From: an uncultured bacterium
Lineage (GTDB): Bacteria; Omnitrophota; Omnitrophia; Omnitrophales; Aquincolibacteriaceae
NCBI GenBank assembly: GCA_964606385.1
Contig: CAZSFZ010000004.1
Span: 47,344-111,343, forward strand
Reading direction: 5' to 3'
Length of the DNA stretch: 64,000 nt
Part shown: one piece after another, positions 3,496 through 45,567 of the stretch
Layout of the letters: every line of letters begins with the position of its first letter
Numbering within the stretch: position 1 is the first letter of the stretch
Made by a program: the position numbers and the translations under genes
Notes under the pieces: model-generated
Database searches by the model: none
Seen by the model: the letters and a program-made list of their open reading frames with translations, nothing else
Told to the model about the DNA's origin: nothing

Positions 3496-4512
3496 ATGAT
3501 CATCGTTCTTAAAAAGACCGCGACACCGCAGGAGCTGGAACACATCTGTCAAAAAGTGCGGGAGCTCGGGCTGACCCCGAACGTGTCCCGCGGCGTGGAA
3601 CGCACCGTGATCGGTGTGATCGGGGATGAGGAGAAACTCCAGGTCCAGCCGCTTGAGGTTTTCCCCGGCGTCGAATCGGTGATGTCGATCCTCAAGCCCT
3701 ACAAGCTCGCGAGCCGTGATTATAAGGCCGAAAACTCCGAGTTCGACATGGGGAACGGCGTCAAGGTTGGGGGCAAGAAGATCGTCGTGATGGCTGGGCC
3801 CTGTTCGGTGGAAAATTACGACATGCTGCTGGATCTTGCCAAGACGGTTAAAAAATCTGGAGCCACGTTTTTGCGAGGCGGTGCGTTCAAACCCCGCACT
3901 TCACCGTACTCTTTTCAGGGCCTTGGTGAAGAAGGTTTGAAGTATCTGCGTCAGGCGGCGGATGAAGTGGGGCTTCTGGTCGTGACGGAAGTCATGGACA
4001 CGCGTCAGGTGGAGCTTGTGTCGCAGTACGCGGATATGCTCCAGATCGGTGCGCGCAACATGCAGAATTTCGACCTGCTTAAGGAATGCGGGATGACCAA
4101 GAAGGCGGTTCTCCTGAAGCGGGGATTGGCGGCCACCGTCAAAGATCTTTTGATGTCCGCCGAATACCTGCTCTCCAAAGGGAATTTTAAGGTGATGCTC
4201 GGCGAACGGGGTATCCGGACCTTCGAGACCTCGACGCGGAACACACTGGACCTTAACGCGGTTCCCGTACTGAAGAAAGAAACCCACTTGCCGGTTCTTG
4301 TGGACCCTTCTCACGGGACCGGGTATCGTGATTTTGTGGCGCCGATGGGCATGGCCGGTGTGGCGGCCGGATGCGACGGGCTGATGGTGGAAGTGCATCA
4401 GAACCCCGAGGAAGCCAAAAGCGACGGCGAACAGTCGGTATTGCCGGAACAATTCGACGAAATGATGAAAAAAGTCCGCCTGATTGCGCATGCCGTCGGT
4501 CGCGATATTTGA
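3496..4512 (+). CDS. aroF: 3-deoxy-7-phosphoheptulonate (DAHP) synthase, type I-beta with N-terminal regulatory domain
   Basis: KDO8P/DAHP synthase I-beta core (GPCSVENYDML...LRGGAFKPRTSPYSFQGLG). RBS GAGGAG upstream. Confidence 0.8.
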   Translation: MIIVLKKTATPQELEHICQKVRELGLTPNVSRGVERTVIGVIGDEEKLQVQPLEVFPGVESVMSILKPYKLASRDYKAENSEFDMGNGVKVGGKKIVVMAGPCSVENYDMLLDLAKTVKKSGATFLRGGAFKPRTSPYSFQGLGEEGLKYLRQAADEVGLLVVTEVMDTRQVELVSQYADMLQIGARNMQNFDLLKECGMTKKAVLLKRGLAATVKDLLMSAEYLLSKGNFKVMLGERGIRTFETSTRNTLDLNAVPVLKKETHLPVLVDPSHGTGYRDFVAPMGMAGVAAGCDGLMVEVHQNPEEAKSDGEQSVLPEQFDEMMKKVRLIAHAVGRDI

Positions 4513-4522
4513 TCGCGACCGC

Positions 4523-4578
4523 GGGAAACGGCGAACGTGGAACGATAAATGCTTGCGTTACCCGTTCCATGTTTCCCG
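4523..4578. repeat. Family-1 palindromic element: tandem GGAACG/GAAACG units, spacer, inverted CGTTCC/CGTTTC units
   Basis: gggaaacggcgaacgtggaacg-ataaatgcttg-cgttacccgttccatgtttccc, between the DAHP synthase and tyrA. Confidence 0.7.
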
Positions 4579-4619
4579 AAATAGCCTGATAGGCATTATC
4601 ACGGTAAAGAGGTGAATTT

Positions 4620-5471
4620 GTGTTTAGAAAAATAGCAATTATTGGACTGGGTTTGATGGGTGGCTCTTTGGCGGCGGCCTGCCGCAAGAGATTTCCTGGA
4701 GCCCGGATCATCGGGATCAGCCGGAGCCGCGATGCTCTCGCGCTCGCCAAGAAAAAGAAATGGGTCCATGAGGCCACCCGGGACGTGCTGGCCGGTGTTC
4801 AAGGCGCGGAACTCATCGTCCTCTGTACCCCAGTGAACACGTACTTTCCTTATCTGAAGGCCATTGACCAGGTTTGCGCGAAAAACGCTCTCGTGATGGA
4901 CGTCGGAAGTGTCAAAGGCGCTGTTCTGAAAGAAGTAAAATCGCGTGCCTGGAAGAATTTCTCATTTGTCGGGTGTCATCCGATGGTCGGTTCTCACAAG
5001 CGGGGGATCCAGGCTGTGAATCCGGATCTTTATAGGGGAGGTCTCGTGCTGATGACCCCCGACCGTAAAACCTGCTCCTGCGGCCTAAAAAAAGCCGCAA
5101 AGTTCTGGAAAACTTTTACGCCTCGGATCGTGACATTAACTCCCCAGTCCCACGATAAGCTCGTGGGAGAAGCGAGCCATTTACCGCACGCCGTCGCGGC
5201 TTGCCTTATACACACCGTATCGGATCCCGCTTTTAAGGTGGGTTCCACCGGGCTGCGGGATACGACTCGCATCGCGGCCGCGGCATCCTCCGTTTGGGAG
5301 CCTATCTTTACCTCGAACCGGAAGGTCGTGTTGGCCGCTATGAGCCGTTTTGAACAAAAGCTCCGGGCATTCAAGAAACTCCTCCAGGACCGTGATCCCA
5401 AGAAACTGGTCCGGTTCCTCGATCAGGCGCAGCAGAAGCGGAATTCACTGCGGGGAACGGGAAACGGCTAA
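4620..5471 (+). CDS. tyrA: Prephenate dehydrogenase
   Basis: Rossmann motif IAIIGLGLMGGSLAAA and a TyrA-like core. GTG start. The last codons (LRGTGNG*) are supplied by a family-1 repeat element. Confidence 0.8.
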   Translation: MFRKIAIIGLGLMGGSLAAACRKRFPGARIIGISRSRDALALAKKKKWVHEATRDVLAGVQGAELIVLCTPVNTYFPYLKAIDQVCAKNALVMDVGSVKGAVLKEVKSRAWKNFSFVGCHPMVGSHKRGIQAVNPDLYRGGLVLMTPDRKTCSCGLKKAAKFWKTFTPRIVTLTPQSHDKLVGEASHLPHAVAACLIHTVSDPAFKVGSTGLRDTTRIAAAASSVWEPIFTSNRKVVLAAMSRFEQKLRAFKKLLQDRDPKKLVRFLDQAQQKRNSLRGTGNG

Positions 5472-9792: not shown

Positions 9793-9888
9793 ATGAATTC
9801 GCATAAAACATTCAAAGCGTTCGTTGCTGGTTTTACGGCCCTCATTTTTACCGTTACAAGTTTCGGAATTTCACCCAACGCTTTTGCG
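9793..9888 (+). other. Predicted Sec signal peptide of giant protein (cleavage near AFA/AAA)
   Basis: MNSHKTFKAFVAGFTALIFTVTSFGISPNAFA|AAA: n-region with K, hydrophobic core, AxA site. Confidence 0.6.
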
Positions 9889-12800
9889 GCCGCAGCCATG
9901 CCTGAAGTGTCTCTGCCGTATCAGGCCGCGCTCGGCCAAAGCCTGAATCTTGCGGTCCCTCAAAAACTTGGCAAACTCGAACATTTCAACGCGGGGCAAA
10001 GCGATAAGCCCGCGATCTTCCATCTCCAGACAGCTCACGGGCATTATGAAGCCCAACAGCAGATCCGCGAGATCCTTCATTATCTTGATAAACAATACGG
10101 TGTGCGGACCGTGCTGGTCGAAGGTAGCGCTTTCAAGCTCGAACCCGAGCTCCTGAATTTTTTCCCCAAAGATAAAGCGCTGACGCAGAAGGTGAATGAC
10201 GCGCTTACAAAACGCGCGATCGTCAAAGGCCCCGAACTGTATTTGCTCGATATGCTCGGGGAACGGGGAACGGGGAACGCAAACGTTAACCGTTCCACGC
10301 ATGACGTTTCCCGCGCTGCCGCACCGGCAGCGTACGGCATCGAAGACCTCAATGCTTATCGCGAGAACGGCGTTTCATTTGTAAACGTGCTCGAGGAAAA
10401 ACAGAAGACCGAACAATTCCTCGCGGACATGAACCTCCAGATCGACCGGCTTGCGAGCCAGCTCCTGAACAAAGACCTCCGCGATTTTCTTCGTCGCGTG
10501 GATGCCTTTGAAAAGAACCAGATCCCGCTCGATACCTGGCTTGCCCAGTTGAAAGGGGAGGCCGCCAAGCGCCTCGAGATCGATCTCGCTTCTCCCACCC
10601 AGCAGTTGGATTGGCCGATGATGGTACGTCTTTTCAAGGCCCAGGAGTTGACCGCGAAAATTGACCGCGAAAAACTCCCGAAGGAACGTGAGGAGTTTCT
10701 GAAAGCGATCCGGCGTTTTATGCCGGGGAACGTAAAACGTGGAACGCAGAACGATCCGTCAACCGTTTCCCGTTCACCGTTCATCGCGATCGAATCGTTG
10801 CTTCATAGCGATTCGATAAGCGTCCAGCTTCCAGATCCTGAAACCGGCATGCTTTTTGAAGATATGGTCACGCAACTTCCCGCGAATTTCAATTATGAAG
10901 CTTTCCCGAATGTCCGCAATTTTATCGCGACCCTGCTCCTTCAAAGCGAGTTGAAAGCCGACCTGGTGATGTTGGAAGTCCAGAAACTTACGGCAGCGGT
11001 CACGGAAAAGCTGACCCGCAACAAGACCGAGAAAAAACTGGTGACGCTGCTTGCCGACCACCGGTTGTTGCAGAAGCTCTTTGCGCTGGAGCTCACGCCG
11101 GCCGATTACGAAGCAATCGCGGGACACGATCCACGGTCCAAGGCCCACGAAAAAACTTTAAAGCCCTCAGCGATCGTAGCGCGGTTTAAAAACGTGGCCC
11201 GTGGCCCGGGAGCCGTGGCCCGGAGCAAGGCTGTTCAATTTGAAAACGTTCAAGAACTTGATCAGCTCGACCAGTTATATGAAAGCGCGATGAAGTTCTA
11301 TGAGGGCGTCAAAGGGCGCGACGAGCTCATGATGAAGCGCGTTGAAGAGCGTCTCAAGGAGACGGGGGATCAGAAAGTCGCTGTGATTACCGGCGGTTTC
11401 CATTCCGAGCCTTTCCATAAATATTTTGCGAACAAGCAATACACCTATGCCCTTATTTCTCCGCGCATCTCAGGCGCTGACGACAAAGGCCACGTTGCCT
11501 ACATCGAAAGCGTCATGGGCATCACGAAACGCGCGACACGCGAGTCCGTTTCTCCGGCGGACCGGCAGGTGCTCGCGGCGGAGAATTTATACGGGGTCGA
11601 TCAGGCAGCCTACCGGAACCTGGTCCGGAAAGTCATCGCGGATGTGACGCGGCCCCACCTTGCAGAAGCAGACGCGGCTCGTTTGAAATTTGCGGCTGGG
11701 CTTGCGACGGCGGGGAATTTCCGCGCTGAAATGCGTCAGACCGTGCCGGGCACGCCTCAGAACACCGGGGAGACGGCGGCCATTACCTTTACGGAAGCCA
11801 AAGATATCGTAGAAGCCCGTAAAGCCAAAGCGCGGGTCCAGGGGACGCGCGGGGCTTGGCCCAGTCTCGACTCTGTTTTTCGCGATTCCTCTTTTGTGTT
11901 CATTCCAATCGCTGTCGGGTCCGAATTTGCTGGAAATTATTTTCTCCGAAGCCGCTCCGAAGCGAGAGCAAACGATGAGGGATTGATAGAGCAAATTGTG
12001 AGGGACCTTAAAGAGAACATTCAAGCGGGTCCCGACTTTATCTTGACTGCTCTTCAAAACCGGCGCAGCTTGCTGACCCTTGAGCTCAATTATTATGATA
12101 TTGCGGAGCAAATTTACCAGACGCTTTCAAAAACCGGGATGAAAAAGGTGGAAGCCGAGATTTTTTTCAGCAAAAACTCCGATGCTATCCGCCAGGCATT
12201 TTCCCGTTCCGAGGCCCGTACCGAGGAAGAAGAAAGAGCTTTGAGTGTCGATATCCTGCTTGGGCAGTCGCCTCAAAAGTTGCCCCAGGATGTTATTCAT
12301 AAGCTCAAAGAAAACGGTTTTCAGACGTTTGGGGACATTCTGACGGCTCTTGATGAGAAGCTTCGGAAAGGGAAGAGAAGGTTTTCTTTTCTGGATTGGG
12401 TGACAGAAGTTGAATTCCTCGTCGCTGTGAAGCGCGAGGCGCCCATCAGCTATGCCAAAATTCAGAAAATCCGCACCCCCAAAAGCCGTGCGGAAGTACG
12501 CGAAGCAAGCGAATTCGGGATTGAGGAAGATGACAAGTTTCCAATGACCGATGCCGAGGCGGATCTTTCCCTCGACGATATCATCGGGGAACTGTATGCC
12601 GTAGCGGATGCGGATGAAAGCGATTCCGGCGATGCCAAGGCTGAAGCGCTTCAGCATATTGATTTGATCCAGAGCGCCAAGCATAAAAATCAACTTCTTC
12701 CGGCTATCGTTGATGCTCAGAAATTCCTCCGCAGTCCCTTAGCGGCCAATCGATCAGAAGTTCGAATCGATCCGAAAGAGCTTGAAGCAAAATTCCCGAC

Positions 12801-15800
12801 TGCGGCCGAACTCGGCATCAAAAGACCCGCCAAATGGCAGTTCTGGATGCAAGATCCCGTGATCGAACGCATGAAAGCCTATGCGACCGAATATCTTGCT
12901 TTTTATGGGTATGCTCCCAAGGCTGCTTGGCTCAAGAGTTTTGTGGATATGTATCTCGCTGGGAGCCGCCACTCCTTTCAGGCTTTTCAGCGCATGCTTC
13001 CCGCTGACAAGCTGGATGCTTTTGTCTACATCGGTGATCTGAAGAAACTTCCCACAGCTCCTCAGCCCGCCGCTAAATCTGAAGTTCAGTCCGCGCTCAA
13101 GAAGCCAGGCGCCAAGCGATCCGAAATCCGGTTAACGCCTGAACAGGAGACGCGGCCATTAGATATCGTAAAAGACCAAGCTGCAATTAGTCATGTTGTT
13201 GTGACCGCTGAGTCCCTTTATAGGCAATGGTCTTCAAAATGGTTTTGGCAGTTACGCATGGGAGAATTTTCTAATGCAAAAAAGCAAATAAAAGCCCTTC
13301 TTGAAAACAAAAAACTTACTTATAAAGACCGGAACTTCTATGGTCTCAACAGACAACCAATTACCGAAGAAGCATTTATTCTACAAGTCATTGTTTTAGG
13401 GCGTTTGGGTTATGGTATTGACGCTTCGATTGTTACCAATAAAGAGATCACACGCTCAGTGAGCCGCGCTGGAAAACGTGACAGCTGGGAGACGTCAGAA
13501 GATGTTGAGCATTGGGGGCGCGACGTGGAAGTGGTGAGTCCGGCTTCGCACAATATTTATTTAGTAGCAACTGCTCGTTCTGAAGTTCGCTTGACGGATG
13601 CCGTGGATGTTTCGAATCAAGCTTTGTTTAATGATATCCGGTCGGTGGCGGAGAACCGGGGTGCTGAGGCCGCGCTGGAGTTCATTCATGCCTATGAGCC
13701 ACGCATCACGGGAGACCAGGACCGCGCCGCGCTTGAGGCTTATCGCAAAGCTTTAGAGCAATCGATGCGCTCAGAGCTACGTAACGCTGGAGAAAAAGAA
13801 GCTAAACGCCTCCAGTTAATGGAAGAGGCGAAAGCGCTGTCAGCGCAATCTGAGGCGATGGCCAAGGATCCTGATGAGGAACGGTACGCTCCTTTATATG
13901 AAGGCTATGCCCGCGAGAGATTGCGTCAGGCCGCGCAGCTTGAAGCTGAAATGGATGCTTCAGCCCGAGCTGAATTACGGGTTGGTGCAGTCATTCAACG
14001 TGTAGCAATCTTTGCGGCGGTGGCTGCGATGACGGGTCTTGTCGGATGCGCTACGAGTCAGCCAGGCCTTTATCATCCGCCGGTTTATTATCCCGCTTCT
14101 CAAAAGACACCCATCTATCATCCGCCGACCTTACCGTCCAACTACAGAGCTCCAAAAATCAATACGGCTCCTGTGGTTCCTCCGGGGGGTATCCGTGTGA
14201 CGCCTCCCCGCCCGTCTGTTCCGCCTGCGCCCAAGCCGCCGGTGATCCGTCCGGGACGTTCGGAGGTTCGTAGTGCGTTCCATCATCTCAAAGAAGCCAA
14301 GACGCCCGCGGAAGTCGGGCATTATCTGGCGCAGCTTTTGGTGACAGGCCAGTTGAACGGTCAGGATAAAAAGATCCTCGAGAAAGCCCTACAAGATGAA
14401 TTTGCTTCAGAAACATCCGGGGAAAAAGTCCAGGATCCTTCAAAGATCACACGTCGTTCCGAATTAAGGGGACACTTGGATCGAATTCGAAAGGCCCAGC
14501 AGAGGCTCGAAGAGGAACGGACCAGCGCCAAATGGCTTGTGATCCTTGGTTTGGCCGGACTTATTTTTATCCTGCACGCTCTCGAAAAATCTTCCTCAGG
14601 AGAAATTGATGAAGCGCAGACGCAAGCCCCTTTGCTTGATCTTGGGCAGGCCCAGCCGCGTTCGGAATTACGTGAAACAACGCAGGAAGCGCTGAGGAGG
14701 ATCCATGCGGACCTGGATGGTGTTGACCGGTTGATCACGGAACTTAAGCGCGACCGAAAAGCACCGAACCGAGAGACCCGTTTGAGGGTGTTGAATGCGG
14801 CTTACCGCGAACTCGAGCAGGAACGGCTTCGCTTGGAGATCGAAAAAGCGGTTAAAGATTTTTGGGGCGAAGAACTCATTCAGTTTCTTGGCTCGGTGGC
14901 GACCGTTTCTCCGGCGACACTTGGGCGCGCTTTAGTTCTGGGTGCGGTCATGCATCCCGCCATGATTCGGAATTTCACAAAGCTGGACCGTTCGGAAGTG
15001 AGGGCGGAAGCGGACGTGGCAACTGCGGCAAAGATCGCCGAACGATGGAAGAGGATCACTTATGTTGAAAGCGATCCGGAAGGCGCGAAGCTCAAGGCCG
15101 AAGCCGAAGAGAAAGGCGCTGGCTTCTTAAACAATGCCCAGACGACCGTCCGTAAAGTCGCAGCCCAGATCAAGCTCGATCCCAAAGTTCTTGAAAAGCT
15201 CCTCCAGTTTACGAAAGCGATTCAGATCAAGATTCCCCTGACGCTCGATGAAGGCGGGGAGACGCGTTACATTGACGGTTACCGTATTGGTCACGCTCCT
15301 TATCGCGGTCCTTACAAGGGCGGCATCCGTTACGCGATCGCGGTTGTGCTGTCCATGATCAAGGCGCTCGCGACGGAAATGAGTTTCAAGAACGCGATCG
15401 CGGGGCTTCCGTACGGCGGCGGCAAGGGCGGCGTGGCGGTCAACCCGAAGGAACTTTCCGTGAAGGAGCTTGCGCGCTTGACCCGCGGGTATGTTTCAGA
15501 ATGCCTGAAGCAGGATCCCAAAGCTTTCGGGCCCCTTGACGATGTTCCGGCGGGAGATATCGGAACTACTTCCCGTGAAATGGGCTGGTTCGCGGATGAA
15601 TTCTTGAAGATCACGCGTCCGGATCTTTTTACTTCTTCGGAGTTCCTTGAAAAACTTGCCAAGTCCGATGAAACCTCCACTCCTTATCTTGAATACTATA
15701 TGGAAGCTTATTACGGCAAGAGGCATATCGATATGAGTGAAGGTTCGCCCATCGCGACCGTGACGGCGAAACCCGAAGGGAAGGGCGGGGCTATGGGCCG

Positions 15801-18800
15801 TACGCCGGCAACCGGACTGGGACTCTATTACGTAACGCGTGAGGCGCTAAAGGTCTACGGCGAACGTCTTGGGATTGGAACAAGTGTGAAGGGACAAAGA
15901 GTCGCGGTGGAAGCCTACGGGAACGTCGGGAGTTACGCTGCCCGGAGTTTTTATAAAGACGGTGCTTCGATCATGGCTCTCAAAGAATATGTTCGCGGAC
16001 AAAATGTAGCGGTCACGGCCGTGAAAGATTCGGGCATCGATCTTGATGCGTTAGACAAGCATTTGGCTGAGAAAAATGCCGATGGAACTTCAAAGGGAAA
16101 TACGGTCCTGACCTATGCGGCGGCGCATCCGGAAGATGCGCGAGTGGTGGATGTCGATCAGTTCTGGTCAAGCGATGTGACGATCCTTGCATTGGCCGCG
16201 AAGGAAAAGACGGTCAATAAGGAAATAGCCGCTCTTATCAAAGCAAAGATCATCTCGGAGGGCGCAAACGGGCCTCTGGAGCTTGACGGCTCCGAGCAGA
16301 TCCTCCTGGATAAAGGCGCGATCATTCTTCCGGACGTGGCCACGAACGATGGCGGTGTAGCATTCTCGTCGCTGGAATGGCGGCAGAACAATATCGGGGA
16401 GCTTTGGCCGGAAGTCGCCGGGAACGGTCTCATGGAAGACAAAGTCGTAAGCGCTTTTTATGACATCTCCCGCGTTTCCGAATCCCAGAAGATCACCTTG
16501 CGCGAAGCGGCCTATCAGATCGCGATCAGCAAGATCGTGGACGCAATGCTTGCCGAGGATTCCGAGCTGGCGTCTCTTTTTGACGAGAGCCATCCTCCCT
16601 ATGTTATGGATGCGGGGGCGAAACGTTGGCGTCCGGAAACCCTGCCGCAACTGAAGCAGGTCGATTCGACCGCTAAAAGGATCGAGTTGATCGAACGGGC
16701 AGATAGCGTCATGAGCAAAAAGGTTGATGAGCTCGTGGCGGAGGCCCTTCGTGAGCTTCCCCTGAAACGAGGGAGCGTGATCCTCCTCGGCGGGCAGCGT
16801 GCGGCCGGAAAGCCGATGCTTGCCGGGCAGATTATGAACAAGATCCGCGAAAAGGGGATCAAGGCGGATGTTCTTGATTTGGATTATCAGACGATTGAAG
16901 ACGTATCCCGCGTGCTTCAGGGCAAGACTATTTTTGTGCGCAAAGAGAACGGTTTGAGCGGAGGGGCTTTCAACCTGGAAGATAAAGAGATCCTTGTGGT
17001 CCACGGTTATTATGCCTTAGGCGACGAGATCCTTCGATTCGTCAAGGCGATGGGAGGCAAGGCTTATCCTGTCATGGCTTATAGTTCACCCGACATCCTC
17101 CTCGCCAATAATTGGGCGCTGACCGCCTACGACCTGCGTTTGATGCGGGATATTTTAACAAGTGTGGCTGTTGGTGAGGAAAACAATGCCCAGGAAGTGA
17201 TCCGTCGGTGGCAATGGCAACGCGTTTCTGAGACTGAAGCTGTTATGGCGACCTGGAAGAATGCCAGGCGTGCGATCAATACGTACCTTCCTTATGAGCT
17301 TCCGTTCCTGAAATCCCTGATCGCTCCCATGATCCGTGTTGCAACGCAGCAGGAAATGAAACGTCCGGATAGCGACGTTTTCACCATGAATGTATTGCAT
17401 CATCTGGACAAGCTGTTGGTCGGCGTCGAGGGTTGGGATGTTTCACTTCTTGACGGCCATCATAATTCCGTGCTGTGGGAGTATGTACAACGCTATGCCC
17501 CGAATGGTATTTATGCGGAATCAGCCGACGACGATATCAAAAAAGTTGCGAACGCGTTGGTCAAGGAAGCCAAAGACACGGTTTTCCTTCTCACTAGCTT
17601 ACAAGACGCTGAAAATTTAACACAGTTGCCCGCGTGGCTCTCTGCCTCGATCGAGCGGATCCTGTTGGCCTTAGAAGTCCAGAAAGATGCCGCAAGCTGG
17701 TATGTCGAAAATCGCGGAAATCTAGTGAGGCTTTTGTCCGGCCGTTCGGAAATGAGGACGATGCCCGCTTTGGGGTCGCCCCACCAAGAACGCTCCGGGG
17801 CAAGGTTAAATGTGCTGATCCTCGGTCGGGGGAGTGATGCTGGGGTCCTGGGAGAGGATATTTGGAAGGGTTTGGGCCGTCCGGATCAAGGGATCTATAT
17901 GCCGGAGACGGAACGCGAAGCCAGAAGTGCTTTGCGGAATGTCCGCGGTTCATTTGATGCCGTGGTGGTAACGATCCCGGACGGAAATCAGACGCTTCCT
18001 CGATGGATGTTCGATCTTGTCCTGGAAATGCGCGGACAAATGCCCGAAATCCCCGTCTTGATCAGTGCGAGCGATAAAAGTATGGTCAGCCCCGCTGCGA
18101 TCTACACCATCAGGGCGCCGATTAAGCTGTTTGTGAAGACTCAAGGGTCTCCCGCGCTTGTTGCAACCCTGAAGGATATCCCGGCGCGTTCTGAAGCGCG
18201 GGCGATACCTGTGTTGGGGGCGACGCATCCGGAGTTGGAAGCCAAGTATAAAGATCAGGTGGAAGCCTCAACCCCCGCTTATGTGAAGCGGGGGAATCCT
18301 ATTTTTGATATCACAACCCCCGGGCAGTTCGAGGCCGTTTTGAAGTACGCGCATTTGTATGCGTACAAAAAAGACGTGGCTTTCGATCCTGCGAATCCCG
18401 GACCCAATGACGAGGGGCTCGGGCTCATGGCTTGGCTAGAGGACTATGAAGCCGAAGCCAAAGTGGCAACCGCGGGTATTCGTTTGACGCAGAATATTCT
18501 TTATCCTTGGGATACCCGGAACCGCATCAATGAGATCGGGATCGCATTCGCAACGCTCGCTAAAGCGTCGGTAAGTAAGGAACAGTTCTCCGGCAAGGAC
18601 CTGGAGAAACTAACGGGTGGGGAATCCCGTTATAACACCAAACGGTTCGTGGACATGATCGCCCGTATCCAGGCCGCACAGGGGATCAGGACCTATGTTC
18701 CCGTCAAACGCCATACGACACCGATCTGGATGGTGTCCATGCTGGCTTTTATGTTCGATCTTGTTGGTGCGGAACACGTGACCTCTTCTCACGCCGGCAG

Positions 18801-21800
18801 CAATTTTTCGGCGACCAAGGACATCAATAATCAAGGGAGCCAATACCTGCCTGAGGAATCAGGACGATTTGTCGCTAAGATCCGTGACATGTTCGAAGTA
18901 GCTAAAAAACAGGGCGAATTCCGTTTCGCGATCGCTGCAGCGAATGATCCTCTCATCGATGAAGAATTGATGAAAGCGACGGATGACGGAACGGATGTCT
19001 ATGTGGACTACCTGAAGAACGGTGTTGCGACGGGCGTCAATTTAGACCGCATCCGCAACGTCAAAGATAAGATCATTGTCGATAGTGTCGGAGGGTCCAT
19101 GTACCGGACCATGACGCGTATCTTTGCGAAACTCGGGATTGCGGACGCGTTCCAGTGGTTGCATACAGAAGAAGACCCGTTCTTTCACGGGATTGGTAAG
19201 GAATTGACCTCTGCGGGGAAGGTGAACGACTACACGCAGGACACGACGGTCATTAAACGTGACAAGAAAACCGGGGAAACGACTTCGATCCCTGTCATGG
19301 AACGTATGGGGTATGACACGCTTCTTAAGGACGCGCCGATCGGGAAAGTAGTGCTTATGACGGACCCGGATGGAGACCGTCTGGTAACGGGACAGGTGGA
19401 ATCCGCGGACCGTGCCGCATACTTGAAACAGCTTGGAGTGGAAGTCCTGAAGCTGGACGAGAATCGGATCCTCGCGGTCTACTCTCCAAACCAATCCTTT
19501 TTCATGTCGATGGTTTATCACGCGGATTCGCTCAAGGCCGCGGGACTGTGGGATAAGCACCCGCGTTTTATCATCATGACGACCGCTTCGTCGCCGGCGT
19601 GGCGCGAATGGGCCGAGAAGAACGGCGTCCAAGTCCTGAACGTGCCGGTCGGTTTTAAAGAGATCGCCGCGATGATGAAGAAGGTCGAATACCAGATGAA
19701 GAAAAATCCGGGAAAACCGGTCGTTGTGAAGGACGTCTTTGGGCGAGAAGTGAACCTGGGTTTGGACCCCCGGATGCTTTTTGCAGGAGAGGAGTCCGGC
19801 GGGATGATCATCGGGCCTGAAGAGCTTATCCAGAGCCGGAGCGGCCGTTTGGCGATCGCGATGCGGGAAAAGAGCGCGGGCGAAGCACTCGTGATCCAAG
19901 CAGCGATGGCGGCTTATTTGGAATCCAAAGGCCAGCCTTTGTCCGGTTATCTCAGTGAACTATTTGATAAGAACCGGATCGCAAGCCGTTTTGATGTGCG
20001 TCATGACCAGACTTTCTACAATCAAAGCGAGCCGGATCCCGATGAACTGAAGAAAGAAAAAGCGAAAGGCGAGATCGCCCGCGAAAAGAATTACGCGTTC
20101 TTTGTGAATATGGTGCTTTCGAAGCTTTCGGGGAAGACGACCACTCAACAGATCATCGAGATATTGAATGAGGTTTTCGCCCCTCAAGGGCTCCGCTTCG
20201 ATGATCTTCAGGACATGATCTTCGTGGGAGATGGTGTTTACCTTCAGTTTCCGGACAAAATCATGGAGATCCGGCCTTCCGGGACTGACGCGAAATCAAA
20301 ATCCTATGGTTACGGGAATGACAAGTTGCGTTTGGCGGTTTATGCGCAGGCCGTGGGTGCCTATAGCGGCGATCCGACGGCTCTTTACCGGCAGTATGTT
20401 GATATGAGCAATTTTGAAGAGGTTAGGGTCGTAAATGGGAAGCCTGTGTTTCGCGGCGAAGATGTTCGCTGGGAGCTTTATCAGGCTTATTACCGGGAGG
20501 GACTTCCGGAAGAGGACTATCAGCCGGCTATGGTTTCCGTCGGCTCAAATCTCGTGACCCCGGCTCAGTCGGAAATCCTGAAAGCGCGTGCGGAAATGCG
20601 TTCGAAACTTGATCTCGAGCAGGCCGCGAAAGCTATGACGATCTCGGCCGCGGTGATCTTGGGTCTTGTGGTCCTGGGCCAGCTCTCTGAAGTCGCTAAG
20701 CTGACGCTTGGCCTTGCCACACTCGGTCTTGCGGGAGCCTTCTGGAACATCCGGAATTTCAGCTTCAAACCGGAGGATCTTTCAAGCCGTTATCCTCAAG
20801 CGACTTCTCTGATCCGGGAGAAGATCCAAAAGATCCTCGCCATCGATCCGCATTTTACGGGTTATGCCTTGGACAGGATCGATTGGAAAAAGATCGATCG
20901 TGATCTTGTGGAGCTTGCTTCCTTAGAAGCGCTCATTGCGCATGGAAGTCAGCACGTTCTGACGGATAGCGGCATCAAGCTTGTTCGGGATGACCGCAAA
21001 GGTGCTGTGACGGTCTTTTCAGCGCAGTCCGTCCGTGACCAGCTCAAGAAGACAGGCGGGGAGATCGTTGAGGCGGGTCACCGGTACCGGCAAGCGGCGC
21101 GCGAACGCTATAGCGTTCAACTGGCTTCGCGTAGTGAGGCGCGCGCAGAAGGGGAAACAGAAGTAAAGCCTGCGGCAAACGCGGCCGTTTCGGCAGAGAA
21201 GCCGGTTGAGGAAAAGCCGGCGCCCAAGATCGATCCCACGAAACCGCTTTATGAAGCTACCTCGTCTCCTCGCGAAGAAAAATCTGCCGTGCTTGAAGGC
21301 GGGGCTATCTTGTTCTGGGGATTTATTGGCATTCTGACCGTGGCCGGATTAGTGGGCGCTCTGATCTTTATTCATAAGGAAGCGGCGCATGATGGTATGT
21401 CTCGCGCGATCATGGTCACGATCTATGGCGTGCTCGCGATCACCGGAACTGTCGCTGGGTGGTTAATCTATGGCATGAGTCGGGATAACCAAAAAATCGC
21501 GGGAGCGGAGGCGAGTTCCAAGTCTGAGGTGGTTTCTCCCGTTAAGGCAGGTAGTCAGCCGTTCCAGCCTTCCGATGCGCCCAAGATCCCCGCGGAAGCC
21601 GCGACGGAAAGCCGTTCCGAAGTGCGTCAAAACGTTGAACAGGAAATGAACGATCTTTTGTCCCGCCGGGACGACCTCATGAAAACCGAAAAATATACGG
21701 CCCAGGTTGCGGTCGAACTTCAGCAGGTCAACGACCGGATCGCGGAGATTCGCCGCAATGTTCAGCAATCCAGAGAGCGTTCGGAAATTCGTAATCCGGA

Positions 21801-24513
21801 AAAAACAATAGATCGAGAAATTGTTCCCGCCCTGATGAAAAGAATTGTCGACCGGGAAATGACGCTTCAAAAGATAGTGGTGGATGAAAAAACCCGTCTT
21901 GAAATAGAAGTTTCTTTGCGTGAACGCGCGATAAACGCTTATCACGCGATCTTTCCCGTTGCAGTCTCAAAAGGATTGGACCCCATAGCGGCTCTAAGGT
22001 TTTTTTATGGGCTGGTTCCTTCGGAAACGGATAGCGATAGAAAATTCATGGACGTCTATGCCGGATTTCTGGCGAAGGATGAAGAAAAGATTCGGGATGC
22101 GAACCGTCAAATATTCGGCACTCCGATCAAGGACCTGGCGACGGCTCGTGAGATCTTTGGGGAAAAATTCTCGTCATGGCTTGGCGTGTTGCTCGCTTTG
22201 CCTCAGGACCTTCTTGAGCAGCGGTTTGCCAAAAAGCTCAGCGGGGACCGCTATGAGCCGGTTGATGAAAATATCTCCGTAATGGCGAACTTCCTTGAGA
22301 ACTTGACGGGGCTTCGTTTGGGGGACGATCGCGAGGTTCTGATCGGGGAAGCCGGTCGGTTGTGGAATGCCTGGAATGATTGGGTCAATCCATCCCGGTC
22401 GATCCCGGTGGCGTCCCGTGTGCTCCAGGTGGGGGGCCTTCAGGTCGTCCAGCATTCCACAGGGTCTTTCATCGCGAAACGGTCTGAGACGCGGATCAAT
22501 CTTATGCAAGTGGCGCCTCAGTTACGGCCTGCGGCAGAATTTCTTGTGGCCACTTTGACGGCCGCAAAAGCAAGCCCGAGGATCGTGACCGCAACGGCTC
22601 GTGAAGTGAAGATCGGAATCACCGATCACGCGGAACGTCAGAATTTGGGGATCATCCTGGCTTATCATCCCGGGAAAACAGGGGTTCTCTATAACAATAG
22701 TGCTCAGCTGCCTGCCGCGGTGGATTTTGAGGTTCGCATTGAACGCGGGGCGGATGAAGCGGAAATGACCACATATGCTTTTGGAGCGGTCAGCGCCGAG
22801 GGCGACGCCCAGGCCAGGGATCTCGTGAATCAATCCTACAGATTGCTTGATACCCTGAGTAAGCTGGAACCTTCCTGGAGCAATGTGCTTCCGGATGGGT
22901 ACTACCCCGGGCGTGGTACCGAAACGGTTTCGCTGGGGACTGAAAAAGATGTCGGACAGACGCGCGCGGAAGTCCGCATCAATGATTTCCGCTATTCCAT
23001 AACCCCGCTGTCCGCGGATGAGAAACGGGTTCCGGGATCGATCAAACGTGAGATGAGTGATGAGGCCCAGCAACCCAATGTTCGCTGGAGCCGGGAGGAG
23101 CTCGAAGGTCTTTCCCAAAAGGTTGTGGATGCGATGAAATACTGGACCCCGAGGCTCTATACCTCCAAGGCTCCGGATGTTCAAACAGCCAAGATGGTTC
23201 AGGAACGGTTATACTCCGAACATTATAGCTATGAGATACCTCTCGCGGCCCATATGTTAAAGGAGATAGCCTTAAAAGCATTGGCCGGAAGAGGTCCTCA
23301 GATCAATGAACTGGGAGAAGGTGACTTGATGTGGGTGGCCAGGGTGCTTCGAGCAGGTGCCGAACATGGCCGCATCCTTCAGAAATACCGGGAAAACTAC
23401 CAGGGGTGGGGGAACTACGACCAGCTGGAATATCTGGCAAGCTCGTCCTCCTATCTGAGAAACGTTCTGAGGAAATTAACCGAGATTTATCAGGCAGAGG
23501 CGCGCCAGGCCGGATCGAATCAGCCCGTGGCTCCTTCCGCGACTGTTCGCTCGGAAGTCCGTGCCGAGGCTCAAGCGGTCTCGCCTGCCGATCAGGGGAA
23601 TTTCATCGTATGGCAGGATGTCCTCGAGGATGTCTACGAGGGTGTCCGTTATGAAGAGACGATCGTTGAAAAAGTGACGCGCTGGTTTCGCGCCGGCATC
23701 CTGCCGTTGCGTGTGGCGTTCTCAGCATCTTACCAGAGAGCGGTGGAGTTGTTGGAACGCATGGGGATCCGTAAAGATGAAGCCGTGGTGCTGGCGAGCC
23801 GTCTTACGGCGGAAGATATGCGGCTGCTTGAGGCGATCAATGCCAAGAGCTTGGCGATCCCCAGGGATCAGACAGGCAAAACCCTTGCCGGCGGTGTTGT
23901 GTTCATGGATGCCGAAGGGCTTCTGGGATTCGCTAAAAATGATAGCCGTGGTTTTTATGCCATGGTGGAAGAACTTGCCGCGGAACAGACGGCAAATGGC
24001 GTTACCGCTAAGCCGATCCTGACCGCGGGAGATGCCGCGTTGATCGGGAAGATCGCCCAAGTATTGAACAACAAGAATTCCGAACTTTTGCCGGCCGAAA
24101 AAGTAAAGGCCCAGGGCTTGATCGATCAAATCCTTCAGGTCGAGGCCCTCAAAGGGGATCAGGCCGCCACGATCAATGGATTGGCCGCGGCAAGACCCGG
24201 GGGGATGGTCACCGTTCTTTCTTCCGCAGAGATGCTGGCGGGCCTTAGCGAAGGAGCGAACTTCGCCTTCAAAGACCGCTTGGCCAAGGAGAACGTGAAA
24301 CTGGTCGTGCGGGCACTTTTGGGACGGATGAGAACGCTGGCAGCCCAATTGGATGGCGCTCCGGCCGCCGATCGGGTCAAGCTTCTTGAAGAGTTCAATG
24401 CGCGTCGCATGGGGGGTCTCAAGAAGACACAGGGCGGATTCGTTTTCGACAATGTCCTCTTGCTCGTCCAGAGCTTTCTCGCTCAGGAAAAAGCGACCGC
24501 GAAATCCGCATAA
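9793..24513 (+). CDS. Giant multidomain secreted/membrane protein, 4906 aa, with embedded amino-acid-dehydrogenase-like and phosphohexomutase-like domains and a recurring R-[SA]-E-x-R motif
   Basis: Uninterrupted 14.7-kb ORF, while neighbouring genes stop at TAA/TGA/TAG. N-terminal signal peptide. No similar-length antisense ORF. Internal enzyme-family motifs. See sub-features and findings. Confidence 0.85.
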   Translation: MNSHKTFKAFVAGFTALIFTVTSFGISPNAFAAAAMPEVSLPYQAALGQSLNLAVPQKLGKLEHFNAGQSDKPAIFHLQTAHGHYEAQQQIREILHYLDKQYGVRTVLVEGSAFKLEPELLNFFPKDKALTQKVNDALTKRAIVKGPELYLLDMLGERGTGNANVNRSTHDVSRAAAPAAYGIEDLNAYRENGVSFVNVLEEKQKTEQFLADMNLQIDRLASQLLNKDLRDFLRRVDAFEKNQIPLDTWLAQLKGEAAKRLEIDLASPTQQLDWPMMVRLFKAQELTAKIDREKLPKEREEFLKAIRRFMPGNVKRGTQNDPSTVSRSPFIAIESLLHSDSISVQLPDPETGMLFEDMVTQLPANFNYEAFPNVRNFIATLLLQSELKADLVMLEVQKLTAAVTEKLTRNKTEKKLVTLLADHRLLQKLFALELTPADYEAIAGHDPRSKAHEKTLKPSAIVARFKNVARGPGAVARSKAVQFENVQELDQLDQLYESAMKFYEGVKGRDELMMKRVEERLKETGDQKVAVITGGFHSEPFHKYFANKQYTYALISPRISGADDKGHVAYIESVMGITKRATRESVSPADRQVLAAENLYGVDQAAYRNLVRKVIADVTRPHLAEADAARLKFAAGLATAGNFRAEMRQTVPGTPQNTGETAAITFTEAKDIVEARKAKARVQGTRGAWPSLDSVFRDSSFVFIPIAVGSEFAGNYFLRSRSEARANDEGLIEQIVRDLKENIQAGPDFILTALQNRRSLLTLELNYYDIAEQIYQTLSKTGMKKVEAEIFFSKNSDAIRQAFSRSEARTEEEERALSVDILLGQSPQKLPQDVIHKLKENGFQTFGDILTALDEKLRKGKRRFSFLDWVTEVEFLVAVKREAPISYAKIQKIRTPKSRAEVREASEFGIEEDDKFPMTDAEADLSLDDIIGELYAVADADESDSGDAKAEALQHIDLIQSAKHKNQLLPAIVDAQKFLRSPLAANRSEVRIDPKELEAKFPTAAELGIKRPAKWQFWMQDPVIERMKAYATEYLAFYGYAPKAAWLKSFVDMYLAGSRHSFQAFQRMLPADKLDAFVYIGDLKKLPTAPQPAAKSEVQSALKKPGAKRSEIRLTPEQETRPLDIVKDQAAISHVVVTAESLYRQWSSKWFWQLRMGEFSNAKKQIKALLENKKLTYKDRNFYGLNRQPITEEAFILQVIVLGRLGYGIDASIVTNKEITRSVSRAGKRDSWETSEDVEHWGRDVEVVSPASHNIYLVATARSEVRLTDAVDVSNQALFNDIRSVAENRGAEAALEFIHAYEPRITGDQDRAALEAYRKALEQSMRSELRNAGEKEAKRLQLMEEAKALSAQSEAMAKDPDEERYAPLYEGYARERLRQAAQLEAEMDASARAELRVGAVIQRVAIFAAVAAMTGLVGCATSQPGLYHPPVYYPASQKTPIYHPPTLPSNYRAPKINTAPVVPPGGIRVTPPRPSVPPAPKPPVIRPGRSEVRSAFHHLKEAKTPAEVGHYLAQLLVTGQLNGQDKKILEKALQDEFASETSGEKVQDPSKITRRSELRGHLDRIRKAQQRLEEERTSAKWLVILGLAGLIFILHALEKSSSGEIDEAQTQAPLLDLGQAQPRSELRETTQEALRRIHADLDGVDRLITELKRDRKAPNRETRLRVLNAAYRELEQERLRLEIEKAVKDFWGEELIQFLGSVATVSPATLGRALVLGAVMHPAMIRNFTKLDRSEVRAEADVATAAKIAERWKRITYVESDPEGAKLKAEAEEKGAGFLNNAQTTVRKVAAQIKLDPKVLEKLLQFTKAIQIKIPLTLDEGGETRYIDGYRIGHAPYRGPYKGGIRYAIAVVLSMIKALATEMSFKNAIAGLPYGGGKGGVAVNPKELSVKELARLTRGYVSECLKQDPKAFGPLDDVPAGDIGTTSREMGWFADEFLKITRPDLFTSSEFLEKLAKSDETSTPYLEYYMEAYYGKRHIDMSEGSPIATVTAKPEGKGGAMGRTPATGLGLYYVTREALKVYGERLGIGTSVKGQRVAVEAYGNVGSYAARSFYKDGASIMALKEYVRGQNVAVTAVKDSGIDLDALDKHLAEKNADGTSKGNTVLTYAAAHPEDARVVDVDQFWSSDVTILALAAKEKTVNKEIAALIKAKIISEGANGPLELDGSEQILLDKGAIILPDVATNDGGVAFSSLEWRQNNIGELWPEVAGNGLMEDKVVSAFYDISRVSESQKITLREAAYQIAISKIVDAMLAEDSELASLFDESHPPYVMDAGAKRWRPETLPQLKQVDSTAKRIELIERADSVMSKKVDELVAEALRELPLKRGSVILLGGQRAAGKPMLAGQIMNKIREKGIKADVLDLDYQTIEDVSRVLQGKTIFVRKENGLSGGAFNLEDKEILVVHGYYALGDEILRFVKAMGGKAYPVMAYSSPDILLANNWALTAYDLRLMRDILTSVAVGEENNAQEVIRRWQWQRVSETEAVMATWKNARRAINTYLPYELPFLKSLIAPMIRVATQQEMKRPDSDVFTMNVLHHLDKLLVGVEGWDVSLLDGHHNSVLWEYVQRYAPNGIYAESADDDIKKVANALVKEAKDTVFLLTSLQDAENLTQLPAWLSASIERILLALEVQKDAASWYVENRGNLVRLLSGRSEMRTMPALGSPHQERSGARLNVLILGRGSDAGVLGEDIWKGLGRPDQGIYMPETEREARSALRNVRGSFDAVVVTIPDGNQTLPRWMFDLVLEMRGQMPEIPVLISASDKSMVSPAAIYTIRAPIKLFVKTQGSPALVATLKDIPARSEARAIPVLGATHPELEAKYKDQVEASTPAYVKRGNPIFDITTPGQFEAVLKYAHLYAYKKDVAFDPANPGPNDEGLGLMAWLEDYEAEAKVATAGIRLTQNILYPWDTRNRINEIGIAFATLAKASVSKEQFSGKDLEKLTGGESRYNTKRFVDMIARIQAAQGIRTYVPVKRHTTPIWMVSMLAFMFDLVGAEHVTSSHAGSNFSATKDINNQGSQYLPEESGRFVAKIRDMFEVAKKQGEFRFAIAAANDPLIDEELMKATDDGTDVYVDYLKNGVATGVNLDRIRNVKDKIIVDSVGGSMYRTMTRIFAKLGIADAFQWLHTEEDPFFHGIGKELTSAGKVNDYTQDTTVIKRDKKTGETTSIPVMERMGYDTLLKDAPIGKVVLMTDPDGDRLVTGQVESADRAAYLKQLGVEVLKLDENRILAVYSPNQSFFMSMVYHADSLKAAGLWDKHPRFIIMTTASSPAWREWAEKNGVQVLNVPVGFKEIAAMMKKVEYQMKKNPGKPVVVKDVFGREVNLGLDPRMLFAGEESGGMIIGPEELIQSRSGRLAIAMREKSAGEALVIQAAMAAYLESKGQPLSGYLSELFDKNRIASRFDVRHDQTFYNQSEPDPDELKKEKAKGEIAREKNYAFFVNMVLSKLSGKTTTQQIIEILNEVFAPQGLRFDDLQDMIFVGDGVYLQFPDKIMEIRPSGTDAKSKSYGYGNDKLRLAVYAQAVGAYSGDPTALYRQYVDMSNFEEVRVVNGKPVFRGEDVRWELYQAYYREGLPEEDYQPAMVSVGSNLVTPAQSEILKARAEMRSKLDLEQAAKAMTISAAVILGLVVLGQLSEVAKLTLGLATLGLAGAFWNIRNFSFKPEDLSSRYPQATSLIREKIQKILAIDPHFTGYALDRIDWKKIDRDLVELASLEALIAHGSQHVLTDSGIKLVRDDRKGAVTVFSAQSVRDQLKKTGGEIVEAGHRYRQAARERYSVQLASRSEARAEGETEVKPAANAAVSAEKPVEEKPAPKIDPTKPLYEATSSPREEKSAVLEGGAILFWGFIGILTVAGLVGALIFIHKEAAHDGMSRAIMVTIYGVLAITGTVAGWLIYGMSRDNQKIAGAEASSKSEVVSPVKAGSQPFQPSDAPKIPAEAATESRSEVRQNVEQEMNDLLSRRDDLMKTEKYTAQVAVELQQVNDRIAEIRRNVQQSRERSEIRNPEKTIDREIVPALMKRIVDREMTLQKIVVDEKTRLEIEVSLRERAINAYHAIFPVAVSKGLDPIAALRFFYGLVPSETDSDRKFMDVYAGFLAKDEEKIRDANRQIFGTPIKDLATAREIFGEKFSSWLGVLLALPQDLLEQRFAKKLSGDRYEPVDENISVMANFLENLTGLRLGDDREVLIGEAGRLWNAWNDWVNPSRSIPVASRVLQVGGLQVVQHSTGSFIAKRSETRINLMQVAPQLRPAAEFLVATLTAAKASPRIVTATAREVKIGITDHAERQNLGIILAYHPGKTGVLYNNSAQLPAAVDFEVRIERGADEAEMTTYAFGAVSAEGDAQARDLVNQSYRLLDTLSKLEPSWSNVLPDGYYPGRGTETVSLGTEKDVGQTRAEVRINDFRYSITPLSADEKRVPGSIKREMSDEAQQPNVRWSREELEGLSQKVVDAMKYWTPRLYTSKAPDVQTAKMVQERLYSEHYSYEIPLAAHMLKEIALKALAGRGPQINELGEGDLMWVARVLRAGAEHGRILQKYRENYQGWGNYDQLEYLASSSSYLRNVLRKLTEIYQAEARQAGSNQPVAPSATVRSEVRAEAQAVSPADQGNFIVWQDVLEDVYEGVRYEETIVEKVTRWFRAGILPLRVAFSASYQRAVELLERMGIRKDEAVVLASRLTAEDMRLLEAINAKSLAIPRDQTGKTLAGGVVFMDAEGLLGFAKNDSRGFYAMVEELAAEQTANGVTAKPILTAGDAALIGKIAQVLNNKNSELLPAEKVKAQGLIDQILQVEALKGDQAATINGLAAARPGGMVTVLSSAEMLAGLSEGANFAFKDRLAKENVKLVVRALLGRMRTLAAQLDGAPAADRVKLLEEFNARRMGGLKKTQGGFVFDNVLLLVQSFLAQEKATAKSA
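10256..10315. repeat. Family-1 palindromic element inserted in-frame inside the giant ORF
   Basis: ggggaacggggaacggggaacgcaaacgttaaccgttccacgcatgacgtttcccgcg. Translates GERGTGNANVNRSTHDVSRA without a stop. Confidence 0.7.
10724..10790. repeat. Family-1 palindromic element inserted in-frame inside the giant ORF
   Basis: ggggaacgtaaaacgtggaacgcagaacgatccgtcaaccgtttcccgttcaccgttcatcg. Translates GNVKRGTQNDPSTVSRSPFIA. Confidence 0.7.
11193..11223. repeat. Family-2 direct tandem (GTGGCCCG x3) in-frame inside giant ORF
   Basis: cgtggcccgtggcccgggagccgtggcccgg, translated VARGPGAVAR. Confidence 0.6.
13981..14260 (+). other. Predicted TM helix followed by a Pro/Tyr-rich low-complexity segment in giant protein
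   Basis: VGAVIQRVAIFAAVAAMTGLVGCA, then PGLYHPPVYYPASQKTPIYHPPTLPSNYRAPKINTAPVVPPGGIRVTPPRPSVPPAPKPPVIRPG. Confidence 0.55.
14527..14585 (+). other. Predicted TM helix in giant protein
   Basis: AKWLVILGLAGLIFILHAL hydrophobic stretch. Confidence 0.5.
15190..16560 (+). other. Glu/Leu/Phe/Val dehydrogenase (GDH-family) domain inside giant protein
   Basis: Family motifs in canonical order: PYKGGIRYA (substrate Lys), GGGKGG (catalytic Lys loop), DVPAGDIGTTSREMGWFADEF, and NAD(P) fingerprint AYGNVGSYAARSF. Confidence 0.75.
16770..16890 (+). other. P-loop kinase-like segment (degenerate Walker A) inside giant protein
   Basis: GSVILLGGQRAAGKPMLAGQIMNKIREKGIKADVLDLD resembles a uridine-kinase/PRK-type N-terminus, but GKP replaces GK[ST]. 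Confidence 0.3.
18430..20400 (+). other. alpha-D-phosphohexomutase (PGM/PMM)-like domain inside giant protein
   Basis: All four family motifs in order: Ser loop TSSHAGSN (~18790), metal loop TDPDGDRL (~19365), sugar loop AGEESGGM (~19790), phosphate loop IRPSGTDAKSK (~20275). Confidence 0.7.
20620..20752 (+). other. Predicted pair of TM helices in giant protein
   Basis: AAKAMTISAAVILGLVVLGQL...LTLGLATLGLAGAFWNI. Confidence 0.5.
21298..21480 (+). other. Predicted cluster of ~3 TM helices in giant protein
   Basis: GGAILFWGFIGILTVAGLVGALIFI...AIMVTIYGVLAITGTVAGWLIYGM. Confidence 0.5.
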
Positions 24514-44884: not shown

Positions 44885-44898
44885 CCAGGGAGTCGATT

Positions 44899-45507: not shown

Positions 45508-45556
45508 CCGATAGCACCCGTTTTGCTATAGGCTATGAGCTGAGGGCTATAAGCTG
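45484..45556. repeat. Family-3 palindromic element (ATAGCC / GGCTAT units) overlapping ubiX 3' end
   Basis: cagcctatagctgatggccaatagccgatagcacccgttttgctataggctatgagctgagggctataagctg. Supplies the ubiX C-terminal codons and stop. Confidence 0.6.
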
Positions 45557-45567
45557 AAAAGGGTCTT

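Follow-up and report, generated by a model that had tools for sequence, protein, structure and literature searches.

A genuine glutamate dehydrogenase (GDH) is built into a giant protein encoded on the Omnitrophota contig CAZSFZ010000004.1, within the stretch of 64,000 nucleotides that was analysed and is here called the window. Within the hexameric GDH class, the enzyme belongs to a subfamily with an insertion. The alignment shows all of its catalytic and glutamate-specifying residues to be intact, and purifying selection on it is strong. The giant protein is a member of a very large modular family of the Omnitrophota. Copies of a five-residue motif, R-[S/A]-E-x-R, recur along it as separators, and these are evolutionary cassette boundaries. 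The evidence as a whole tips slightly toward a reading in which a selected and probably working GDH is released from the giant protein, or delimited within it, by processing at the separators. In this reading, cleavage and cellular location are what we infer. The open reading frame (ORF) and the parts of its GDH cassette are as follows.

Nucleotides 9793-24513, + strand: giant ORF, 4,906 amino acids, uninterrupted, between lpxA (- strand) and tyrS (+ strand)
Nucleotides 14989-15003, + strand: RSEVR separator that opens the GDH cassette, residues 1733-1737
Nucleotides 15127-16578, + strand: GDH domain, residues 1779-2262, from Pfam, NCBIfam and PDB matches and alignment
Nucleotides 15217-15603, + strand: substrate domain of the GDH
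Nucleotides about 15610-15756, + strand: subfamily insertion of the GDH
Nucleotides 15784-16554, + strand: NAD(P) domain of the GDH
Nucleotides 15316-15558, + strand: catalytic and substrate residues K1842, K1866, K1878 and D1922, from conservation in 119 standalone GDHs
Nucleotides 15799-15801, + strand: residue R2003
Nucleotides 16345-16347, + strand: residue N2185
Nucleotides 16366-16368, + strand: residue S2192
Nucleotides 15913-15930, + strand: dinucleotide fingerprint AYGNVG, residues 2041-2046, from alignment
Nucleotides 16693-17742, + strand: PRK/uridine-kinase-like P-loop domain, residues about 2301-2650, from weak Pfam P-loop matches
Nucleotides 17743-17757, + strand: RSEMR separator at the end of the cassette, residues 2651-2655

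Both halves of the dehydrogenase fold were recognised by Pfam. ELFV_dehydrog_N (PF02812) covers residues 1809-1937 (E 3.7e-38; 130.6 bits against a cut-off of 25.3), and ELFV_dehydrog (PF00208) covers residues 1998-2254 (E 3.2e-43; 148.6 bits against a cut-off of 23.4). The two domains occur in the proper order and each exceeds its gathering score, which places the segment in the superfamily well outside the range of chance. A first-pass annotation of this DNA had suggested a search with these two models, and its GDH-family domain at 15190-16560 falls within the true domain. The NCBIfam GDH models matched the segment with a best E of 3e-74. A phmmer search of PDB sequences returned about 56 solved glutamate dehydrogenases, the best being that of Thermus thermophilus (3aoe_A, 9e-70). 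All four motifs quoted in the annotation are present in the frame of the giant ORF: PYKGGIRYA (residues 1840-1848, nucleotides 15310-15336), GGGKGG (residues 1875-1880, nucleotides 15415-15432), DVPAGDIG and REMGW (residues 1917-1924 and 1928-1932, together nucleotides 15541-15588), and AYGNVGSYA (residues 2041-2049, nucleotides 15913-15939). The RSEVR site is also present, and GDH homology begins 46 residues later. No second GDH gene was found within the window. A search of a 5.8-billion-protein database returned no close relative of the GDH, though the representative library holds many members of the giant-protein family.

GDHs of this class are hexamers. The window copy shares with hexameric enzymes such as those of Thermus thermophilus (3aoe), Pyrococcus furiosus (1gtm) and Peptoniphilus (2yfq) the two-domain layout, the order of the motifs, all catalytic and glutamate-specifying residues, and about 35-40% identity. 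It differs from them in its position inside a 4,906-residue protein, in an insertion of about 45 residues, in the AYGNVG fingerprint and in its C-terminal fusion to a PRK-like domain. The insertion (…TPYLEYYME…) lies between the two GDH domains and is limited to giant-borne copies, a divergent module in protein P0164 and the standalone protein P0001. The latter (locus L001, 105-1589) is the closest standalone relative, 39% identical. P0001 has a ribosome-binding site of its own, and its N-terminus is a hydrophobic signal or anchor; this is unexpected for a GDH.

Individual residues were checked in an alignment with the 119 closest typical standalone GDHs, in which 96 columns are at least 95% conserved. 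The segment keeps 74 of the 96 and differs at 22. Among the residues kept are K1842, K1866, K1878, D1922, R2003, N2185 and S2192, whose columns are 100% conserved in the 119 enzymes. We take these to be equivalent, in that order, to K89, K113, K125, D165, R205, N373 and S380 of Clostridium symbiosum GDH. In the C. symbiosum enzyme, K125 of the Gly-rich loop and D165 are catalytic, K89 and S380 bind the gamma-carboxylate of glutamate, and K113 binds its alpha-carboxylate. Retention of the K89 and S380 equivalents therefore indicates a glutamate enzyme and not one for Leu, Phe or Val. The catalytic Lys and Asp, which the annotation had proposed to verify by alignment, are thus intact. The Rossmann fingerprint deviates from the canonical form. 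In AYGNVG the first Gly of GxGxxG is replaced by Ala (A2041), and the later Gly residues are retained. In 118 of the 119 standalone GDHs this first position is Gly. The same AYGNVG is common to all giant-borne copies (P0121, P0130 and L007), and a cluster of standalone enzymes, P0036, has AFGNVG.

Selection on the GDH was estimated from a syntenic ortholog of the whole giant gene. The ortholog, P0121, is found at locus L005 with the same neighbours (S1, fabF, lpxA, the giant gene, tyrS and ABC). It is intact in two independent assemblies; in the second locus, L006, only the downstream gene is visible. A codon-level comparison with P0121, at a synonymous divergence (dS) of about 1, gave a ratio of nonsynonymous to synonymous substitution rates (dN/dS) of 0.05 for the GDH, which is 91.9% identical to its counterpart at the amino-acid level. 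The phosphoglucomutase (PGM)-like module and the PRK-like P-loop domain gave 0.042 and 0.06, respectively. Values were higher, 0.137 and 0.138, for the family domains at the N- and C-terminus and reached 0.215 elsewhere, so that dN/dS is below 0.22 in all modules of the ORF where it could be estimated. The lowest values thus belong to the PGM-like module and the GDH, the two recognisable enzymes. A ratio of 0.05, among the most constrained parts of the protein, shows that the GDH is selected and not decaying. The first-pass view of a working module rather than a decayed fold therefore holds as far as selection and the catalytic residues go, with the deviant fingerprint on the other side; activity and cofactor use are predicted from the sequence. 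Recent horizontal acquisition of the GDH was considered and ruled out, because its GC content overall and at third codon positions (GC3) equals that of the rest of the giant gene and the nearest outside relative is 39% identical.

The GDH and the PRK-like domain have no separator between them, and they form one unit of 918 residues from RSEVR1733 to RSEMR2651. The PRK-like domain has one weak relative in the 5.8-billion-protein database, P0271, which carries PF00485 (PRK) and an ATP-cone and shares the string YLPYELPFLK. The combined cassette recurs in P0121, in P0130 (7,823 residues) and in L007, each time about 46 residues past a separator. The L007 copy comes from metagenome contig Ga0172380_10000261 (1-21014), where the ORF is open over the entire 21-kb locus and encodes more than 7,004 residues with 21 separators. 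The GDH of P0130 is 81% identical to that of the window, and the N-terminal family domains of the two proteins are 55% identical. Either the cassette is far more constrained than its carrier or it has moved between carriers.

The giant ORF contains 22 separators, where 0.29 would be expected from composition. Their positions are given below.

Residues 644, 721, 805, 899, 987, 1109, 1262, 1326, 1392, 1489, 1555, 1623, 1733, 2651, 2799, 3599, 3780, 3941, 3996, 4230, 4391 and 4586: separators R-[S/A]-E-x-R
Nucleotides 11722, 12751, 14989, 17743, 18187, 20587 and 23548: examples of separator positions in the window

In its remaining five frames, the whole 64-kb window has only 5 matches to the motif, and the separator codons of the giant ORF vary synonymously. 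This variation indicates selection on the peptide and not on the DNA. A DNA-level repeat or recombination site was accordingly ruled out, given the free synonymous variation and the confinement of the motif to the coding frame. Across 151 members of the family, the looser pattern R.E.R was seen 1,164 times against 158 expected, with Ser at position 2 in 66% and Ala in 18%; some lineages use variants such as RTELR, RNELR and RAERR. None of the 22 separators falls inside the 1,708 residues of the GDH/P-loop and PGM cassettes (random placement would give this with P about 8e-5). Comparison with the ortholog at L005 shows that separators also mark the limits of evolutionary change. A large insertion or deletion at residues 1114-1261 corresponds to exactly one separator-to-separator unit, and of the replaced blocks, two are bounded by separators at both ends, while a third begins at one. 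The units absent or replaced in the ortholog are nucleotides 13117-13575 (residues 1109-1261), 11953-12486 and 14455-14658, which shows that cassettes turn over between close relatives. In addition, hydrophobic signal-like segments lie within 50 residues after a separator in 74 of 840 cases and before one in 24 of 840, and several of them resemble lipoprotein signals. With this enrichment of transmembrane- or signal-like segments just past the separators, the units look like whole proteins with their own N-termini.

The same design is found throughout a very large family. The first 720 residues match proteins of three Candidatus Omnitrophota metagenome-assembled genomes at 52-55% identity. A HMMER search of an exhaustive representative library with residues 1-1200 returned 4,244 cluster representatives, 527 of them at E<=1e-30. 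The family N-domain, of about 580 residues, stands at the extreme N-terminus of proteins that are mostly 2,000-7,800 residues long. A common plan is seen in 32 members and in the Omnitrophota locus L002: a signal peptide, the N-domain, variable cassettes, and a C-terminal domain ending in …A-K/R-S-A. The cassettes of relatives include PGM, hexokinase, adenylate kinase, acyl carrier protein, histidine kinases, receivers, starch synthase, HEAT repeats and many unknowns. The setting that was described as highly unusual for a GDH is therefore so for proteins generally, but not within this lineage, where a large family carries metabolic enzymes. The window protein follows the plan at both ends.

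Nucleotides 9793-9894, + strand: predicted Sec-type signal peptide, residues 1-34 (...SPNAFA|AAA), from sequence features
Nucleotides 9955-11721, + strand: N-terminal family domain with an Ere/ChaN/TIKI/TraB hydrolase fold, residues about 55-643
Nucleotides 13966-14049, + strand: RAELR separator and lipoprotein-signal-like segment (residues 1392-1419) with the lipobox LVGC at its end
Nucleotides 23548-24510, + strand: conserved C-terminal family domain, residues 4586-4906, from phmmer matches and alignment

Fold comparison places the N-domain in the Ere/ChaN/TIKI/TraB superfamily, on the basis of a two-lobed alpha/beta fold with a His-Glu pair. In this superfamily the pair activates water, and it is formed by His85 and Glu113 in Bcr135 and by His3902 and Glu3930 in RRSP (PMC6254334). 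The N-domain has His82 (…QTAHG…) and Glu110 (…LVEGS) at the same spacing of 28 residues, and His537 in the second-lobe GGFH. The spacing is retained in 89 of the 91 family members matched by a strict pattern, and the E-x-H of the 2His/2Glu motif and the second-lobe GGFH are likewise present in many members. In contrast to the superfamily, the N-domain carries a helical insertion of roughly 330 residues between the lobes. It matched no Pfam family of the superfamily at E<=1, and an N-domain profile found no match among PDB sequences. Since the superfamily includes the site-specific proteases TIKI and RRSP, the N-domain is the obvious candidate for an enzyme that would cut at the separators, a role that we propose by analogy.

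The reading that we favour can be stated as a short sequence of steps. The separators would be proteolytic processing sites, and the TIKI-like N-terminal domain would cut at them. The GDH cassette, once freed or delimited, would assemble and interconvert glutamate with 2-oxoglutarate and ammonium in an NAD(P)-dependent manner. The topology of the protein offers an argument for such processing. As one continuous chain, the protein is contradictory: the signal peptide places residues 35-1398 outside, and the next hydrophobic segment has an N-in charge pattern and a lipobox. This contradiction argues for processing into units that are each targeted on their own. Directly after RAELR1392 comes VGAVIQRVAIFAAVAAMTGLVGC, with a Pro-rich stretch after the lipobox LVGC, and a separator with a lipoprotein-signal-like segment is also found in P0121, P0122, P0134, P0139 and L002. 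An lgt gene is encoded in the same window (40034-40771).

Several points weigh against this reading. We only infer the cleavage, and the motif may instead serve as a linker for structure or recognition. A position downstream of a signal peptide would make the GDH extracytoplasmic, whereas GDH, PGM and kinases need cytoplasmic cofactors, and a simple linear topology drawn from the hydrophobic segments does not put the GDH unambiguously inside. The change of the first fingerprint Gly to Ala, together with differences at several positions conserved in the subfamily (among them P2134L and T2163E), leaves cofactor binding a prediction. The Walker A motif of the PRK-like domain reads GGQRAAGKP in the giant copies, that is, GKP and not GK[S/T], with the Ser/Thr lost. 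Location, which may be the cytoplasm of the bacterium, its envelope or a host cell, can be argued both ways. A cytoplasmic GDH is favoured by the need for NAD(P) and by neighbouring cassettes that require cytoplasmic substrates (PGM here, kinases in relatives). Export is favoured by the signal peptide, by the hydrophobic anchor of P0001, and by P0130, in which the cassette preceding the GDH starts with a signal-like segment and no transmembrane segment lies between it and the GDH.

A stronger form of the processing idea is possible, and we hold it only tentatively. The giant ORFs may be true cellular polyproteins, each cut at R-[S/A]-E-x-R by its own TIKI-family protease into dozens of proteins. 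The products would include GDH, PGM and kinases, as well as lipoproteins and membrane proteins with their own signal sequences. If so, the giant gene would amount to an operon in one reading frame or to a MARTX-like vehicle for metabolic effectors, and the separators would be the long-sought cleavage map of the Omnitrophota giants.

The separators need not be cut at all if the protein is an unprocessed multi-enzyme scaffold, anchored in the inner membrane by its transmembrane helices, in which GDH, the PRK-like domain and PGM are held side by side at the cytoplasmic face and the separators serve as flexible linkers or docking motifs. We consider this unlikely. In its support, such a scaffold is favoured for the sugar-metabolism and regulatory modules of Omnitrophota giants in a recent preprint (bioRxiv 10.64898/2026.06.07.730766). 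The window protein has six hydrophobic segments, its enzymes require cytoplasmic cofactors, and strong constraint on the enzymes fits a scaffold equally well. However, a hexameric GDH would be awkward inside a 4,906-residue membrane protein. A linker role leaves unexplained why a five-residue motif is kept among proteins with unrelated cassettes and why signal- and lipoprotein-like segments directly follow it. The N-in charge pattern of the transmembrane segment at residues 1399-1419, preceded by a region that should lie outside, is also inconsistent with one chain. Processing itself is retained in another alternative, which we judge improbable: an exported, MARTX-like multi-effector protein, whose termini would mediate export or delivery and whose cassettes, freed by the TIKI-like protease, would divert the metabolism of a host or prey. 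The signal peptide, the conserved N and C domains, and a mosaic of central cassettes that turn over between close relatives agree with this, as do the hydrophobic signal or anchor of P0001, the closest standalone GDH, and the signal-like start of the P0130 cassette ahead of its GDH. The Omnitrophota have been proposed to be predators or parasites with giant proteins acting on target cells (PMC10066038; bioRxiv 10.1101/2023.11.21.568195), and RRSP, a TIKI-family protease, belongs to the MARTX toxins. Against it, there are no RTX repeats and no cysteine protease domain in the giant protein by Pfam, and no secretion-system genes adjacent to it, where lpxA, fabF, tyrS and an ABC-2 transporter lie instead. 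The cargo is made up of ordinary enzymes of the housekeeping type (in relatives also histidine kinases and acyl carrier protein), which would be odd effectors, and delivery is a conjecture.

Two further explanations concern the GDH and the ORF themselves; it is very unlikely that the GDH fold is decaying or that the ORF is an assembly artefact. A GDH fold kept without catalysis, for binding, scaffolding or regulation, could account for the Ala in GxGxxG, for the 22 of 96 highly conserved columns that differ, and for a fused kinase-like domain with a degenerate Walker A. Such a pseudo-enzyme is nevertheless highly improbable, as all catalytic and substrate-binding residues are kept at a dN/dS of 0.05 and the Gly-to-Ala change also occurs in the standalone cluster P0036. 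Several of the differing columns, PAGD for example, agree with other active GDH classes (E. coli and C. symbiosum sequences). The length of the ORF raised the question of whether separate genes had been joined by misassembly or by a sequencing error that erased stop codons. We found nothing in favour of this and regard it as barely credible, given a 14.7-kb open frame with 22 in-frame separators, an ortholog intact in two independent assemblies with the same flanking genes in L005, and thousands of family members that share the layout.

Giant ORFs of the Omnitrophota have been described before (PMC10066038; West-Roberts et al. 2023, bioRxiv 10.1101/2023.11.21.568195). The 2023 preprint proposed that C39 or S8 peptidase domains cleave them, and it stated that the cleavage points were unknown (bioRxiv 10.1101/2023.11.21.568195). 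A preprint of June 2026 described a class, termed 'multi-enzyme metabolic cluster', in which PGM, receivers, starch synthase and kinases occur, noted that most members have a signal peptide and transmembrane segments, and discussed the conflict of this topology with the enzymology (bioRxiv 10.64898/2026.06.07.730766). The text and one supplementary file of that preprint make no mention of GDH, the separator motif, polyproteins or cleavage. A literature search on Omnitrophota and polyproteins found nothing. Metabolic enzymes in Omnitrophota giants have therefore been reported already, and we found no report of a GDH cassette, of separators or of a TIKI-like domain in them. The window protein resembles these multi-enzyme giants in origin, in its signal peptide and transmembrane helices, and in the tiling of metabolic enzymes on one polypeptide. 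The catalogues take proteins of at least 10,000 residues with many Pfam families; at 4,906 residues the window protein falls short of this limit and has the same design. GDH is not among the named modules of the catalogued giants, and neither the separator nor a TIKI-like N-domain is described for them.

Other known systems are similar in part. Like the giant protein, MARTX toxins have conserved termini and central modules that can be exchanged, with a protease of their own that is proposed to free these modules, and the MARTX module RRSP shares the TIKI fold with the N-domain of the giant protein. The toxins, however, are defined by glycine-rich RTX repeats, a cysteine protease domain activated by InsP6 and neighbouring type I secretion genes, which the giant protein and its locus do not have, and their cargo is cytotoxic effectors, whereas the cargo here is metabolic enzymes. 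Viral polyproteins and the multi-core precursors of ribosomally synthesized and post-translationally modified peptides (RiPPs) are alike in that a short conserved motif recurs between the units of one translation product. Unlike them, the giant gene is a cellular chromosomal gene among housekeeping genes, and its cleavage is only presumed.

As an enzyme the GDH is ordinary, and it is the carrier that is unusual. The known function of the GDH, its catalytic residues, hexameric state and strong constraint make it a calibrated marker with which it becomes testable whether Omnitrophota giants function as a single chain or as many products. The separators and the TIKI-like hydrolase supply specific sites and a specific candidate enzyme for the cleavage question. 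If processing is true, a polyprotein strategy would be widespread in a cellular lineage, and thousands of 'dark' giant ORFs could be split into units that can be annotated.

The remaining parts of the giant protein are less well characterised. The predicted signal peptide has a positively charged n-region, a hydrophobic segment at residues 9-27 and an AxA site. ELFV and PGM are the only Pfam families with significant matches, and at E<=1 nothing credible was found in residues 1-1732, 2651-2798 and 3599-4906. The second enzyme cassette lies downstream of the GDH.

Nucleotides 18187-20586, + strand: phosphoglucomutase-like cassette, residues 2799-3598, from Pfam PGM_PMM_III/II/I, between RSEAR and RAEMR

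The PGM-like cassette is very divergent. It keeps DPDGDR, GEESGG and RPSGTD, and its phosphoserine loop reads TSSHAG. The 148-residue module that follows the GDH cassette looked by eye like a receiver; we assign it to no family, as it has no Pfam match and the acceptor Asp is seemingly lacking. The C-terminal family domain ends in ...AKSA and has phmmer matches at the C-terminus of 10 family members. Its predicted core is Rossmann-like, fold searches gave generic matches only, and the C-terminal 1,127 residues have no homolog in the 5.8-billion-protein database. The giant gene lies in a neighbourhood of diderm housekeeping genes, namely scpB, pheA, hisC, DAHP synthase, tyrA, rpsA, fabF, lpxA, tyrS, ileS, lgt and menaquinone genes. 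Among the last, the interval 42490-47535 of the window encodes UbiD, UbiA, an MqnA-like protein (VitK2_biosynth) and a radical-SAM MqnC-like protein, which suggests the futalosine route to menaquinone.

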